Program-made: the position numbers and the translations under genes | From: Octopus vulgaris | Taxonomy: Eukaryota | Direction: 5' to 3' | DNA: 64,000 nt | Assembly: GCA_951406725.2 (NCBI GenBank) | Contig: OX597815.1 | Location: forward strand, 36,456,001 to 36,520,000 | The notes under the pieces: model-generated | What the model was told of the DNA's origin: nothing | Seen by the model: the letters and a program-made list of their open reading frames with translations, nothing else | Databases searched by the model: none | In this document: one piece after another, positions 30,829-55,920 of the stretch | Layout: each line of letters opens with the position of its first letter | Position numbering within the stretch: position 1 is the stretch's first letter

Positions 30829-31012
30829 GCTAGCTCCTACATGCATTTTTTTTCTCTCCTTGTTTCTTTTCTGTGTATCTTTCTTTCGAAGAGCGTAAGC
30901 TCGAAACGTAAAAGACTTGTTTTATTTCTATTCCTGAGTGCCATACTAATACAATTGTTTATTCGTACTCCACCTGCCTTCGTCTTTTGTTTATTTTCGT
31001 AAACCTTCCCAT
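30829..31012 (+). mobile_element. Short Penelope-type element (family H) with a minimal hammerhead-like motif at ~30878-30915
   Basis: TCTTT CTTTCGA A GAGC GTAA GCTC GAAAC GTA AAAGA, ending in (TA)n. Homologous to 32935, 43360 and 55780. Confidence 0.65.
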
Positions 31013-31256
31013 TATATATATATATATATATATATATATATATACATACACACACACACACACACACATTACATATAGATATTTATTTATTTATTAATCG
31101 AAGTGTACAGTATTACATATCATTACATATATTATGCAGTTTATTGCATTTTGTTATGTGCATGATACCCTACCTAGCTCATGGAAAAATTGTCTTGCAT
31201 CAAACCAGTCCATGGTTCAAAAAAATGTTGGGGACCACTTGTCTAAATAGCCATGT

Positions 31257-31316
31257 GTAGTAGTAGTAGTAGTAGTAGTAGTAGTAGTAGTAGTAGTAGT
31301 AGCAGTAGCAGCAGCA
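31257..31316. repeat. (TAG)n/(CAG)n microsatellite
   Basis: Read directly from the sequence. Confidence 0.9.
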
Positions 31317-32195
31317 TCTTAGATGTAAGAATAGCATCCCATTGCAAGCTTCACAGAAGCTTTGTAGGGAATTAGTAATTCTCCACAAAACTTTGAGAGC
31401 TAAAATACTTTGGGGGGCTGAAAGGGAAAAACCAATCTTTGCGACTGGTCTTATTGTGGGGAAGCAAACTAAGAATTACAAGACAATAAATTTAGATACC
31501 ATCAACTATTCAACCTGGCGTAACATCTATCTATATTGCTCTCTCTCTCAGATGATATAATATGGTGAATAATAAAATGGTACAAAATAACATTAATTAT
31601 TTAATTTTAAAAAGCATTAAACAAATAAACAACCACAAGTTTTTATACTAAAAAAGCAACAACAACAAAAAATACAAACAAACAAGTAATTGGTTTACTC
31701 CATTTCACTTTCAAAATATATTTTCAGAAATTATTCCAACAAGAGGAAATATCATATACAATATGTCAAATGCTTTCTGAAATAAATGAATGTCATCAAT
31801 CTTAACATCCGGGAACATATAAATTTCATTCTAAGCTGAAGTTTAATAGATTTAACTATTTTCTTTACATCCCACTAACCAGAGGAAACAGGATGATGGC
31901 TCAGGATCCTGGGTGGATGGCAGTACAAAAGATGAGCTGAGCTGGGTAGCAATCTGTACTTGCTATAGTTTTACTTGGATTTGGCTTATTGCTGCTTAGC
32001 CCCCAGGTCAGCTCTAGTTTATAAGAGCCTATGGTCAAAAGACATTCCAACCATGACCATACCAGCTTTTGCTCTTTTTGTTTTTAGATATTTCTTTTTT
32101 TTTTTACTTGTTTCAGTCATTGGACTGCAGCCATGCTGAGGCAACAGCTTTGAAGGGTTTATTTGAACAAATAAACACAGTACTTAGATTATTTT

Positions 32196-32470
32196 GATTA
32201 TATGGGAAACTACCACCTGTGTCATCTCTTGTGAAAGGTAGGAGAGTCCAGTTTGCTGAACATTGTTGTAGAGCTGAAAACGAGACAATTTCTACTCTTC
32301 TCCTCTGGAAGCCATCTACTTGCAACACCAGAGGGCGCACACTCTCCTACCCTGATGTAATCTCCAGGGATACAAGCATCCAGCAACAGGACCTCCGTAA
32401 TGCTATGATGGACCGTGAAGTCTGGCGTAGCATGGTAAATTCCATTGTCTCAACCACGGTCGAACAATGA
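32196..32470 (+). mobile_element. 5'-truncated RTE-type LINE 3' end inserted into a minus-strand SINE A (32100-32780)
   Basis: RRVQFAEHC.R...RGRT....D.I..D....L..AM.DR..WR. 11-bp TSD tagattatttt at 32185-32195 and 32471-32481. Confidence 0.85.
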
Positions 32471-32934
32471 TAGATTATTTTAAAGTCTGCTATTTATTCC
32501 ATAGGTCTCTTCTGCTGAACCATTAGGTTACAGAGACACAAACAAATCAACACCAGTCATCAAGTGTGGGAGGAAAACAAATACAAAAGCAAACACACAA
32601 GAGAGAGAGGGGGGGGGGAGAGCCAGCTTCCACAAAGTTTTCATCTACAAAATTCACTTACAAGGTATTGGCCAGCTTAGGGCTATTATACAAGAAACTT
32701 GCCTAAGTGACCAAGGTTCCACACAGTAGGACTGAACCCAAAACCATGCCGTTGCAAAGTGAGCTTCCTAACCACATGTATATGTGTGGTTATATGTATT
32801 TAAGATCGTATTATCCCAATGGCCTTCTTTTTATGATGGTAGGGTGAAGATTTTGCAGCTATTTCCATCTATTGTAATCAATAAAATAATGAAAATACAC
32901 TGTAATACATCATATAGACAAATAAAATATATAT

Positions 32935-33122
32935 AGGGAGAGTTTATGAAAAAAACAAAAGACGAAGACAGGTGGTGTACAAAACAAACAGATGTATTAG
33001 TATAAAGCTCAGGAATAGAAAAAGTCTTTTACGTTTCGAGCCTACGCTCTTCTACAGAAAGGGACACAGAAAAAACAAAGAGAGAAACAAGGAGAGAAAA
33101 AAAAATGTGTGTAGTGGCTAAT
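32935..33122 (-). mobile_element. Family H short element with a minimal hammerhead-like motif at ~33027-33061
   Basis: Minus strand: TTT CTGTAGA A GAGC GTAG GCTC GAAAC GTA AAA. The 3' end abuts a TA run. Confidence 0.7.
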
Positions 33123-53334: not shown

Positions 53335-53805
53335 CAACCAAAATAGATAGACGGATGTTAAGGTGGTTTGGCCACATGGAGAGGATGGATGAGGAGCAGA
53401 TGGTAAGGAGGGTGATGATAGCAGAAGTGGTAGGCAGCAGAACCAGAAGCAGAACTCATTTTGTGAGGATGGATGGAGTGAGGAAAGCTTTGGTGGTTAG
53501 AGGTGTTGGAGTGAGAGAGGCAAGAGAATTTATAAATGACAGGAAAGCTTGGAGAGTGTTTGTGGATGGATGAGTGAATTTGATGTTGCTCAAAGTGGTA
53601 CAGAACCAGCATGATGTGGCAGGGGTAAACCAGCATATGATGTCAGGTCCCACTGCTGATATTGGGGGGGTTGCATTTTATGCTTTGACCTGAGCATAGA
53701 ACAGGGCTCGCCTCTTTGAGCTGGGAAATGAATGCCTGGTGTGTGTCATGTTGTGGCTACCCCCTCCTAAGAAAATGGGGAATAGTCCTGGGTATATAAA
53801 AAAAA
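53335..53805 (+). mobile_element. RTE-clade LINE 3' end
   Basis: LRWFGHMERM......RRV....V.G.R.R.R.....DGV..........A..DR..WR. A-tail and possible TSD atgtttttaa. Confidence 0.85.
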
Positions 53806-55200
53806 TGTTTTTAAGAAAAACTTGTTTATTCATCTAGGATGCAAGGAATGTGTCTTAGTGGGGAACATGTAGTCACACTGTCCCTCTAGATTTACTATGT
53901 GGACTGTGTATAAGGACCTAAGTTGTGCAGGCCAACTGAAACATTTCAATGTGTTTTTGTGTTTTATTAGGTGATTTTATTATAGGATGTATATACACTT
54001 TCATCAAGGCTATACCTATAATGATTGTTACTGTAAAGTTAATCAATTGTGAAAATGTAGAATTTCCAAGAATTCATTTGATGACCATGTGTTGTATATC
54101 ATCATCATTTAAAATCCATTTGTCCATGCTTGCATGTGTCAAATGGAATTTGTTAAAGCAAATTTTCTATCGCTGGATACCCTTTCTGCAGTCAACCCTC
54201 ACCTGTTTCCCTATGGTCAGACATGTTTTTCATAGATTGAAAATGAACAACACTTGTATGAAGATGATGTTCGTTTACAACCATCACATGATGTCTAAAA
54301 GGGCACACACACACACACACACAATTCTGTCACCTAAATTCACTCACAAGGCTTTGGTTAGCCTGAGACTAAAGTAGAAGACATTTGCCCAAGGTGCTGT
54401 GCAGTGGGAATGAACCCAAGACCATGAGGCTGAGAAGCAAGCTTCTTAACCACACAACCATATCTCCTCTATATATCTCCTGTATATATATTTTTTATAT
54501 TATATTGTAGTTTAATGATTTTGTGAGGAGGTGAATTGAACTAGAAGATTATGGGTTGAAGAAGGAGATTTTGTTATTCTTAACAATGTGTTACAGCTTG
54601 TATATAGGGTTAAATTCTCTTTCCACACACACACACTGGAAAGAGATAGACTCTATTTGAGCGTTAGCAGAGATAATTTACCAAGTCTGATATTTCTGAT
54701 GATCACTATTAATTGTACAATTCAGTGGCTAAGGCACCAGACATCAGACCCCTAATAGTTTTCTTATTTCTCTTGGAAATGGGAAGAAAAACGGATCTTT
54801 TCGCTTTGACCGGCAGATTTTTTTAATAATTTCTTTGTAACTAAACACTTTTAAACTTCGTATACTGGTAGAAAGTGTTTATAAAACATCTTTTTCTCTT
54901 GGCTTTCTTGAGAAAATTCTGTAGTATGTAAGCTATTTGTTCTTTAATTTCTTGCATTTCGGCAATTTCAACCAATGAATGACGTCTGTTAAGGTGAATT
55001 CAATATCTCCAGATCGTTGTCAACAACAATAATTTGCGGAGTCATATGAAATTGTCCCTGCTATTTATGAGAAAAAAGATACCCTGTAGTCATAAACTAA
55101 GGGGGTCACTCGTAAACAGAGCTGGATAACAAAACCGTTCCCTCTTTAGTGTCCACCCATAATTAAGACCCTAGTATCGATCTATTGCATTTTAATCTAT

Positions 55201-55250
55201 TTTAGGGTTAGGGTTAGAGTTAGGGTTGGGTTAGGGTTAAGGTTAGGGGT
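55201..55250 (+). repeat. Degenerate (TTAGGG)n interstitial telomere-like tract
   Basis: tttagggttagggttagagttagggttgggttagggttaaggttagggg. Confidence 0.8.
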
Positions 55251-55544
55251 GAGTGGAAGGGTATCTTTTTTTCTTCATAAATGTAAATAAACCCAATCTG
55301 TTTCTTAAACGAATATATAATATGTAATATGTGTATCTGTGCAACAGAGAGGAAAATTAAAACTGCATATGTTGTGAACTTAGAATATGTGTTTATTAAT
55401 AAAAGTTTAATAACAATAATCTTTTATTCATACGAACGTAAGTGATATGAAATATGTCATAAATAACTATGTATATATATATATATATATATAAATATAT
55501 ATATATATATAGTTAATCTATATAAATATATATATATATATAGT

Positions 55545-55740
55545 TAATCTACACATGAACAAAGAGAAAACACAACACGAGGATGTGGAACAAGTATAGT
55601 GTTATTGGACGCTCAGGAAAGGAAAGAAAGAAGGAGGATTTAACGTTTCGAGCGGAGCTCTTCGTCAGAAACATAGAAAAAGGTAAGGTCCAAGGAAGAG
55701 AAGATGGAGAAAGAAAATCACCAACAATACACACACACGT
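55545..55740 (-). mobile_element. Family H-related element with a canonical-core minimal hammerhead at 55639-55671
   Basis: Minus strand: TTT CTGACGA A GAGC TCC GCTC GAAAC GTT AAA. Confidence 0.75.
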
Positions 55741-55778
55741 GTGTATATATATATATATATATATATATACACATACAT

Positions 55779-55920
55779 AGTTGAAATTTACAGAAAAACA
55801 AAAGACGACAGGTGTATTAGTTTAACGCTAGGGAAGGTGAGAAAGTCTTTTACGTTTTGAGCCTACGCTCTTCAACAGAAAGGAACATGAGGAAATAAAT
55901 GGAGAGAGAATAAAAATGTA
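55779..55920 (-). mobile_element. Family H element with a mutated hammerhead-like motif (GAAA to AAAA)
   Basis: gtcttttacgttttgagcctacgctcttcaacagaaag. Confidence 0.65.

Follow-up and report, generated by a model that had tools for sequence, protein, structure and literature searches.

Minimal type I hammerhead ribozymes have been described in Penelope-like elements (PLEs), with a consensus that comprises the core CUGANGAH, a bulge before the G10.1-C11.1 pair, a palindromic 15.2-16.2, a helix I of 4-5 bp and a U-rich 5' side (Cervera & de la Pena 2014, PMC4209133). Most of them are single motifs, which the same work attributed to truncated PLEs. They have been published as weak even with A at position 6 (A6), variants that cleave as dimers are ascribed in a review to Lunse et al. 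(2016/2017), and the role of the hammerhead in PLEs is described as unclear in the literature. For the PLE of Anolis, hammerhead cleavage requires the addition of the element's own protein; in vitro, hammerhead-dead mutants of this element (Poseidon of Anolis carolinensis, PAc) were still inserted and the dominant template was uncut RNA (Frangieh et al. 2024, PMC11167929). Naiads are successful although they have no canonical hammerheads. Short non-autonomous PLE derivatives such as Chlamys MRC1 exist (Craig et al. 2021, PMC8557442), and in published work on non-LTR retrozymes the share of monomers reaches 1 in some families. Minimal hammerheads in PLEs, the targeting of TA repeats and derivatives of PLEs that are non-autonomous have all been published.

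Of the ribozyme core, A6 is normally invariant, G8 and G12 are the published general acid and base positions, and positions 7 and 17 are those where a hammerhead tolerates variation. In a published mutant scan, single and double mutants of CUGA had low activity, with the exception of the C3G/G8C swap. The natural A6C substitution lowers cleavage in Mg2+ more than 10,000-fold relative to Mn2+, and is rescued by Mn2+ (Perreault 2011, PMC3088659; Naghdi 2020, PMC7151607).

On balance, we favour reading the five related sequences described here as a non-coding, high-copy element of ~190 bp with (TA)n as its insertion target and a minimal hammerhead whose position 6 is U (U6). It is likely a derivative of the pseudo-LTR (pLTR, the 3' end) of a PLE that relies on a PLE protein for copying in trans, and its ribozyme is predicted to be weakened. 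As a class of element, PLE pLTR derivatives within TA microsatellites are ordinary.

Copies and hammerhead motifs in the window

The window, the whole 64-kb stretch of Octopus vulgaris DNA that was analysed, contains five copies of 144 to 221 bp. Copy c1 (30821-31012, plus strand, with a 5' end that falls within 30821-30829) belongs to the U6 lineage, has the core CUUUCGA (G5U and A6U) and a loop II of GUAA, and runs into (TA)18. Copy c2 (32931-33120, minus strand) has the core CUGUAGA, and its limits were taken from empty sites that lack 188-190 bp under two other organism labels. Copy c3 (43361-43580, minus strand) has the core CUGUUGA, is flanked by TA runs on both sides and, towards the 3' end, has 31 bp duplicated in tandem (43370-43432). 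Copy c4 (55545-55725, minus strand, 5' end uncertain within 55721-55740) shows the canonical core CUGACGA and a loop II of UCC, and copy c5 (55779-55922, minus strand) combines the core CUGUUGA with a G12A change at a CpG and an internal deletion of ~23 nt. The last two lie head to tail, with ~50 bp of TA/TG/CA repeat between them, so that three copies in the window stand alone and two form a pair from different subfamilies.

Comparison with nhmmer placed c1, c2, c3 and c5 at 70-85% mutual likeness. Since c4 is only ~50-54% identical to these four, it was assigned to a sister subfamily, and the proposal of one single family, made in the sequence-only reading, was abandoned. The same search of the window returned no sixth full copy and no shorter 3'-only or longer copy, the other matches being the repeat inside c3 and five weak ones (E of at least 1). 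A short element is present in all five places, as had been proposed, but the length of ~185 bp does not hold for every copy, given the deletion in c5 and the duplication in c3.

The order within the unit is a pyrimidine tract, the hammerhead motif, a 3' arm of ~100 nt and TA. All five motifs were recovered in the places and on the strands first reported, with G8 at 30888 (+), 33052 (-), 43517 (-), 55663 (-) and 55873 (-). The minimal hammerhead spans 30878-30915 on the plus strand in c1 (C3 30883, H17 30910, stem I of 5 bp) and, on the minus strand, 33026-33061 in c2 (C3 33057, U6 33054, N7 33053, H17 33030), 43490-43527 in c3 (C3 43522, H17 43495) and 55638-55672 in c4 (C3 55668, H17 55642), the last being canonical. 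The layout of a minimal type I hammerhead, a form that has no stem III loop, is found in 5/5 copies. Each has an unpaired base between 9 and 10.1 followed by the G10.1-C11.1 pair, ACGU as the palindromic 15.2-16.2, and A or U at the cleavage site, and each can form a helix I of 4-5 bp. G8 is kept in all five copies and G12 in four; GAAAC, said to occur in every copy, is therefore seen in four, with AAAAC in c5 as a result of G12A. The core CUGANGAH is matched in c4 only, and U6 is found in the other four copies; this division agrees with the earlier description, with the amendment that the 30.8-kb copy carries two core changes (G5U and A6U).

A relaxed minimal-hammerhead descriptor matched exactly these five places in the window and none in 200 dinucleotide shuffles; as the descriptor was fitted to the five copies, this result excludes compositional chance and nothing more. 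No Rfam hammerhead family matched the copies at E<=10, which we take to mean that the minimal form lies outside the models and not as an argument against the ribozyme. Exact or degenerate motif scans gave no loci in metagenome contigs, prokaryote genomes or viral contigs.

Target, mobility and ends

The 3' ends had been described as running into or lying beside TA repeats, and they do: TATATA follows directly on four of the five copies, and TATGTATG and then (TA)13 on the remaining one, compared with a background of 1.2-1.4% of oriented window positions that run into TATATA. Public contigs were aligned to one copy (the c2 locus), using the DNA runs X1, X2 and X13 and the run X16, which is guessed to be RNA and whose contigs say nothing on strand, ends, level or expression. 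Matching contigs numbered 17,729, 21,958 and 11,605 in the three DNA runs, with thousands of variants per genome. Contig depth was highest on the hammerhead core and did not drop at the cut site. At the c2 locus, 188 bp are missing from one contig of X2 and 190 bp from one contig of X13, both with flanks at single-copy depth. The joined flanks keep a short TA run in the absence of these 188-190 bp, which indicates that the element entered a short TA run that was already there, and the site shows no target-site duplication past 3 ambiguous letters and no poly(A) tail. The empty sites, the number of contigs per run and the clustered lengths given below bear out a discrete, high-copy, mobile and TA-targeted element.

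We give almost no weight to the alternative that the element is a Pol III SINE mobilised by a LINE of the ordinary kind, in which GCTCGAAAC would be a B-box look-alike and not part of a ribozyme. The element is indeed dispersed, short and high-copy, and GCTCGAAAC is one base off the B-box consensus. However, the copies showed no tRNA or Rfam head and, by eye, no A box at the usual distance; the empty site argues against it by its lack of a poly(A) tail and its limited duplication, as do the complete hammerhead layout and the canonical core of c4.

The name retrozyme, in its published sense, was not upheld: the copies are mostly solo, with no tandem arrays of complete hammerheads, and no circle was seen. 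Head-to-tail joints in the DNA runs were single low-depth contigs only, among the joints listed, and no back-joint was among those listed for X16 (10 further rows lie outside that list).

All five window copies start 72-91 nt ahead of the cut site, and the three copies that have no internal indel extend 95-102 nt from the cut site to the 3' end. The idea that the 5' ends differ from those of random truncations is favoured by the clustered lengths (~7e-5 under a geometric truncation model) but weakened by ends that are ragged across 20-35 nt. This raggedness leaves a small probability, which we rate as slight, that the copies are merely the ends (solo pLTRs) that heavy 5' truncation left of an autonomous U6 PLE and not an independently replicating non-autonomous family, in keeping with the usual attribution of single PLE minimal hammerheads to truncated PLEs (PMC4209133). 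Against this stand the similar start of 5/5 copies and the loose ends on the 5' side, which among the best-supported few of ~770 consist of pyrimidine tract or of mixed flank and have no coding extension in common; that these are the best few of ~770 speaks in its favour. Nor was a PLE coding remnant found upstream of the copies: none of 49 frames within 3 kb was RT-like by Pfam, a scan that is weak because Pfam also missed a real Hydra-clade RT, and tblastn found none. No ORF adjoins any of the five copies in the window.

That RT belongs to a broken Hydra-clade PLE at 37361-40130 (minus strand), which is not a family member. It contains an RT with DKT, a CxCx5C linker and a GIY-YIG-type EN region, has an inverted 5' piece and is set between (TA)n arrays. 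As a partner it was rejected, since its 3' end differs and it carries its own, different hammerhead-like motif (37397-37457). No autonomous PLE sharing the 3' end of the family was found in a comparison that covered this one PLE of the window.

In support of the non-autonomous PLE derivative, the unit is discrete, non-coding and mobile, has a microsatellite target and lacks a long target-site duplication, and a TA-inserted PLE lies within the same window. From this anatomy and the literature, we infer that the family is probably mobilised by a PLE. The unit would be transcribed by read-through or from an unknown promoter. A PLE RT/GIY-YIG protein would then bind the hammerhead and the 3' arm and nick (TA)n, with reverse transcription beginning ~100 nt 3' of the cleavage site; a protein of a Neptune- or Poseidon-type family is the most plausible because stem III is of the ACGU type. 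The template would be uncut or religated RNA, since inserted copies retain 72-91 nt upstream of the cut site.

Position 6 and the state of the ribozyme

In X1 and X2, the two runs in which the U6 tallies can be closed (those of X13 and X16 cannot), each alternative to U6 stayed below 3%. No alternative reached 3% at U4, U6, A9, A9.1, A13, A14, A15.1 or U16.1 in these runs, and the tallies of changes at these A/U positions are fully accounted for by the variants listed; 14 variants lie outside the list, and in X1 five such places could be a core G or C. By contrast, position 7 in the public runs shows U (22-47%), C (12-20%) and G (1-27%) besides A, and position 17 shows U (11-45%) and C (0.2-11%) besides A. 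G17 was below 3% in 4/4 runs, leaving H17 as A/U/C, but its absence is weak evidence because A-to-G changes of at least 3% occur nowhere except at position 7. Among the variants listed, N7 and H17 are the sole variable sites of 15 core positions (chance 1/105 for a random pair). As U6 is fixed while variation sits at positions 7 and 17, it is a lineage trait and not a product of decay; the sequence-only reading had already taken it to be shared. The contig variants stem from few source lineages and are not independent events.

Covariation among the five copies is slight to negligible. Stem II is invariant, and stem I shows one two-sided change, which was equalled by 82/500 shuffles. In the public contigs, changes at C15.2/G16.2 (6-9%) match control CpG decay (5-8%), and a compensatory ACGU-to-AUAU change is therefore not claimed. 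The predicted minimum-energy state is not the hammerhead fold, as the stem I probability does not exceed 0.02 in any of the five monomers, and the best predicted dimer (-19 to -28 kcal/mol) is favoured over an ideal double hammerhead (-4 to -16 kcal/mol). Separately, pairing of stem II GCUCG with a conserved downstream UGAGC was possible in 23/25 cells, without two-sided covariation; this putative competing helix is a lead only.

In the reading we favour, U6 would reduce self-cleavage, which would benefit a short RNA that otherwise halves itself. The retained fold would serve in recognition by the protein and in cutting that is slow and helped by dimers or protein, and the c4 type with its canonical core would represent a sister lineage that retained A6. 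Such attenuation appears more likely than full tolerance of U6, which the sequence-only reading had suggested as a possibility, because published A6 and CUGA mutants lose most Mg2+-dependent activity; the strict fixity of the remaining core bases fits continued catalysis as well as attenuation.

We regard it as rather unlikely that U6 is fully tolerated and active in the cell, through dimers, help from a PLE protein or a preference for Mn2+, with cleavage and possibly circularisation as part of the cycle. The confinement of the listed variation to N7 and H17 and the retention of G8 and, in 4/5 copies, of G12 would agree with it, as would the rescue of A6C by Mn2+, the protein-dependent cleavage in Anolis and the occurrence of head-to-tail joints in DNA runs. 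It is opposed by the published scan, in which no second mutation rescues CUGA mutants, by the weakness of PLE minimal hammerheads despite A6, and by the lack of a depth drop at the cut site and the retention of the 5' half of the ribozyme in the copies; no A6U test in such a context was found in the literature. Less likely again, and in our view a distinctly minor candidate, is a catalytically dead U6 motif that hitchhikes or serves as a protein-binding hairpin, with a pattern of variation that reflects a founder accident. Catalysis is dispensable for PLE insertion in vitro (PMC11167929), Naiads do without canonical hammerheads, stem II never covaries, and c1 and c5 have extra core changes (G5U, G12A). 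This candidate does not, however, account for N7 and H17 varying while the other A/U core positions are spared in X1 and X2, when ~17 non-CpG places among the 74 of the 3' arm are variable in at least one run.

Beyond the attenuated element that we favour, a wider reading is possible and is put forward tentatively. A family among the most numerous hammerheads of an animal genome, with thousands to hundreds of thousands of copies in several related species, may have gone unseen because its core is CUGUNGA. In this reading U6 would be tuned and still functional: cleavage would be slow, would need Mn2+ or protein, or would fall on the U6 strand of heterodimers formed with the A6 sister family, and a 190-nt PLE parasite could thereby spread uncut. 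If A6U is active, the hammerhead consensus widens and censuses based on CUGANGA overlook large families; if inactive, the fold is kept for another job, e.g. RT recognition. A U6 lineage that was massively amplified beside a sister that keeps A6 offers a ready natural comparison of the need for the hammerhead in PLEs.

Relation to known systems

No description of a high-copy family with fixed U6, or of a U6 core, was found in literature listings, and Repbase, Dfam or Lunse et al. may already contain it. 'Octopus' has no match in the supplement of Cervera & de la Pena 2014 (PMC4209133), and the family motif has no exact match in that of Craig et al. 2021 (PMC8557442), where line-wrapped sequence could conceal one.

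The minimal type I hammerheads of metazoan PLE pLTRs (PMC4209133) share with the family the bulged base, the ACGU stem III, the short helix I and the U-rich 5' side, and they too are mostly solo copies that number in the thousands. Copy c4 satisfies their consensus fully, with a layout nearly that of the Acropora digitifera Neptune motif. They differ in that A is present at position 6 in all 56 representative motifs and required by the descriptor, whereas U6 is lineage-wide here, and in that they lie in the pLTR of an element, whereas the copies here have no attached ORF. Non-LTR retrozymes (Cervera & de la Pena 2020, PMC7229834; Li, Clavereau & Pollet 2026, 10.64898/2026.07.22.740005) are likewise short non-coding hammerhead units and are proposed to be non-autonomous PLE pLTR derivatives. 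However, they form tandem arrays with complete hammerheads (canonical in PMC7229834) and circRNA, in contrast to the dispersed monomers with a minimal, non-canonical core found here, and the canonical type I hammerhead with loop 1-loop 2 contacts that enters the 2020 definition is absent from the copies.

PAc (PMC11167929) has a similar AT-rich target, and its reverse transcription is implied to start ~85-92 nt 3' of the hammerhead cut, compared with 95-102 nt from cut to 3' end in this family; it is autonomous, with a canonical core and a hammerhead that overlaps the ORF start, whereas the copies here show no evident ORF start. Hydra-clade PLEs, including Hydra-1_Obim (PMC8557442), share the (TA)n preference and a hammerhead near the 3' end, but the Hydra hammerheads listed there have A6 and a stem III of 3-4 bp with a small loop, which the family lacks in favour of the ACGU minimal stem. 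A natural parallel at position 6 is the A6C hammerhead of phage Bcep176 (PMC3088659, PMC7151607), which has low activity in Mg2+; it carries C and not U at a single phage locus, whereas the substitution described here is borne by a high-copy mobile family of animals.

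Anatomy of the five copies

The window is AT-rich, animal-like in character and contains 43 merged arrays of at least 4 TA units. A fuzzy search of it for GAAGAGC-loop-GCTCGAAACGT matched exactly the five places named in the sequence-only reading: c1 (30821-31012, plus strand), c2 (32931-33120, minus), c3 (43361-43580, minus), c4 (55545-55725, minus) and c5 (55779-55922, minus). Each copy consists, in this order, of a pyrimidine tract, UUU, a 7-nt core, a bulged A, GAGC-loop-GCUC, (G/A)AAACGU(A/U), AAA, a 3' arm of ~100 nt and a TA repeat. A descriptor fitted to the copies matched the window at 5 places and none of 200 shuffles, and a similarity search of the window found neither a sixth full copy nor a 3'-only fragment. 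The proposed single family holds for c1, c2, c3 and c5, which are 70-85% identical to one another and all carry U at core position 6 (U6), but not for c4, which shows 50-54% identity to them and has the core CUGACGA. The division into four U6 cores and one canonical core likewise stands, but c5 also carries G12A at a CpG, so that it reads AAAAC instead of GAAAC. In addition, c5 has an internal deletion, c1 a second core change (G5U) and c3 a 31-bp duplication.

In every one of the five copies the 5' third (e.g. 33062-33110, minus) is a pyrimidine tract of 45-60 nt that ends at the hammerhead with an AG within the core, and together these look like a 3' splice site; in D. virilis Penelope, an intron terminates at helix I. 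A different repeat, also abundant, has c1 and c5 in its microsatellite end; copies related to it occupy at least 8 further places in the window.

Several observations speak against a structural reading. Stem covariation is slight: stem II is invariant in the five copies, stem I shows one two-sided change, and the changes in the ACGU palindrome equal CpG decay. [quoted passage not shown] A block, TTCC(T/C)GAGC, lying ~20-30 nt past the cut site (33007-33015, minus, and equivalents), is kept in both subfamilies and able to pair with GCUCG of stem II/G12, with a U-to-C variant (6-86% by run) converting G-U to G-C; it is possibly an inhibitory alternative fold or a protein site.

Mobility and core variation in public sequencing runs

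Contigs from 4 of 24 listed public runs were aligned on c2 at 80% likeness, with the c4 type too distant to be counted. The three DNA runs among them (X1, X2 and X13), each under its own organism label, yielded 17,729, 21,958 and 11,605 matched contigs; X16, tentatively an RNA run, yielded 2,027. Summed contig depth was maximal at the hammerhead core and dropped at least 200-fold from bin 33111-33121 to bin 33122-33132. The peak/flank ratio was 1-4 x 10^5, or 3-13 x 10^3 once divided by 31 for overlap; since summed depth is no copy number, the latter is stated only as lying between thousands and hundreds of thousands. In X2 and in X13, a single contig joined the flanks of c2, skipping 188 or 190 bp; its shorter side covered 51-53 letters, 3 letters were ambiguous, and the between-segment was given as 'not known'. 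The joined flanks contain a short TA run, so that c2 represents a lineage-specific insertion in a pre-existing TA microsatellite, without long duplication. Loose ends 3' of the unit were TA-rich. Among the 24 rows listed out of 776, the 5' loose ends showed a pyrimidine tract or mixed flank and no shared coding extension. Head-to-tail joints occurred as single contigs in the DNA runs, and c5-c4 have the same arrangement in the window.

The 5' ends are ragged over 20-35 nt, and all five window copies begin 72-91 nt ahead of the cut site, for which a geometric truncation model gives ~7e-5 at best. It is thus very improbable that the copies are just an autonomous PLE's truncated ends, the more so as two limited tests in the window found no PLE coding remnant upstream of any copy. 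A Pol III SINE is scarcely credible. The earlier proposal of a discrete, high-copy, mobile unit is borne out by the matched contigs in three DNA runs, the empty sites and the clustered 5' starts, and that of TA targeting by the TA run at the empty site and the TA-rich 3' loose ends.

U6 is a trait of the lineage. In hammerhead position numbering, contigs on c2 had U (22-47%), C (12-20%), G (1-27%) or otherwise A at position 7, and A, U (11-45%) or C (0.2-11%), but not G, at position 17, the cleavage site. Position 6 showed no variant among those listed; for the 14 others, per-run change tallies were used as a cross-check. In X1 and X2, all A>N and T>N places were explained by listed variants, so that U4, U6, A9, A9.1, A13, A14, A15.1 and U16.1 are each without alternative at >=3%. 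The fixity of U6 covers these two runs; unlisted places number four in X13 (A>T once, A>G three times) and one in X16 (A>G), and X1 has five on G or C bases that could fall within the core. The variable core sites are the two that a hammerhead permits (chance 1/105 among 15 sites, the underlying events being few founder changes and the absent G17 alone weak), and a U6 motif that is a dead fold appears improbable.

Penelope-like elements and other features of the window

A PLE of the Hydra clade, broken and with its 5' piece inverted, lies between TA arrays (37361-40130, minus). It carries the DKT motif and CxCx5C linker that mark this clade, and its reverse transcriptase (RT) has 603 relatives. 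Visual comparison shows a resemblance to Hydra-1_Obim, which suggests an octopus-like cephalopod genome. The hammerhead-like motif of this PLE (37397-37457) belongs to the Hydra type, with C at position 4, and is unlike that of c1-c5. The element shows that TA-targeting PLEs act in this genome, yet it is not the evident partner of c1-c5 and was rejected as such on its different 3' end. A perfect palindrome of ~110 bp between TA arrays (48465-48576) comprises two head-to-head Hydra-type motifs with a canonical CUGAAGA core (C3 48524 plus / 48515 minus), a 4-bp stem III and a stem I of at least 6 bp, and resembles two very short PLE 3' ends in inverted arrangement.

Elsewhere, a degenerate 5S rRNA match (9601-9718, plus; 63.5 bits vs a gathering score of 38) beside an ATAG/TA repeat suggests a pseudogene or 5S-derived SINE head, and a 278-aa frame (24064-24900, minus) that matches RVT_1 weakly (E 2.8e-4) is a non-LTR RT remnant. 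A related GC-rich unit of 61-67 bp forms dispersed arrays of 2-8 copies each at 4648-4833, 28660-28806, 36493-36977 and 51223-51438. A ~2-kb (TA)n/(TACA) array (40134-42085) is broken at ~41250-41470 by a short non-repeat insert, a direct duplication of ~390 bp (50350-51040) is flanked by (GA)n repeats, an interstitial (TTAGGG)8 array (55202-55248) lies ~220 bp from the c4 TA tail, and a long inverted repeat (61170-61265) attracts several spurious miRNA-family matches.

Proposed mechanism and comparison with known systems

The element is very probably a non-autonomous PLE derivative. A PLE RT/GIY-YIG protein would nick (TA)n and copy the RNA from a point ~100 nt beyond the cut site on its 3' side; the distance from cut site to 3' end is 95-102 nt in c1, c2 and c4. 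As the copies retain the whole ribozyme and 5' tract, the template would be uncut or religated. In Anolis Poseidon, the cut lies 26 nt into the ORF and reverse transcription begins at 111-118 nt; mutants of the catalytic hammerhead are still inserted, the main template is uncut RNA, and hammerhead cleavage requires the protein (PMC11167929). For A6C, cleavage in Mg2+ is reported to be more than four orders below that in Mn2+ (PMC3088659, PMC7151607), and a complete pairwise scan of a hammerhead gave low activity for CUGA mutants; U6 therefore most likely attenuates cleavage, and full activity in vivo is unlikely. In an RNA of 190 nt whose ribozyme sits mid-length, attenuation would leave a larger share of full-length template. 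The whole account, a non-autonomous PLE derivative with attenuation by U6, is favoured with moderate confidence.

The literature searched yielded no high-copy family with fixed U6; Lunse et al., Repbase, Dfam and bioRxiv supplements may include one. A bolder and less likely reading is that of a CUGUNGA hammerhead family which works or is tuned and has escaped descriptor searches. Non-autonomous movement has already been proposed for retrozymes (10.64898/2026.07.22.740005), and non-autonomous derivatives are in print for Chlamys PLEs (PMC8557442). The element departs from non-LTR retrozymes in both tandem arrangement and canonical core and is therefore not classed among them, so that the label 'retrozyme' was dropped. 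Under the PLE minimal-hammerhead definition, c4 conforms, whereas the U6 copies deviate in the core. In its working, the element resembles the PLE pseudo-LTR with a minimal hammerhead (PMC4209133), moved as a non-autonomous unit.
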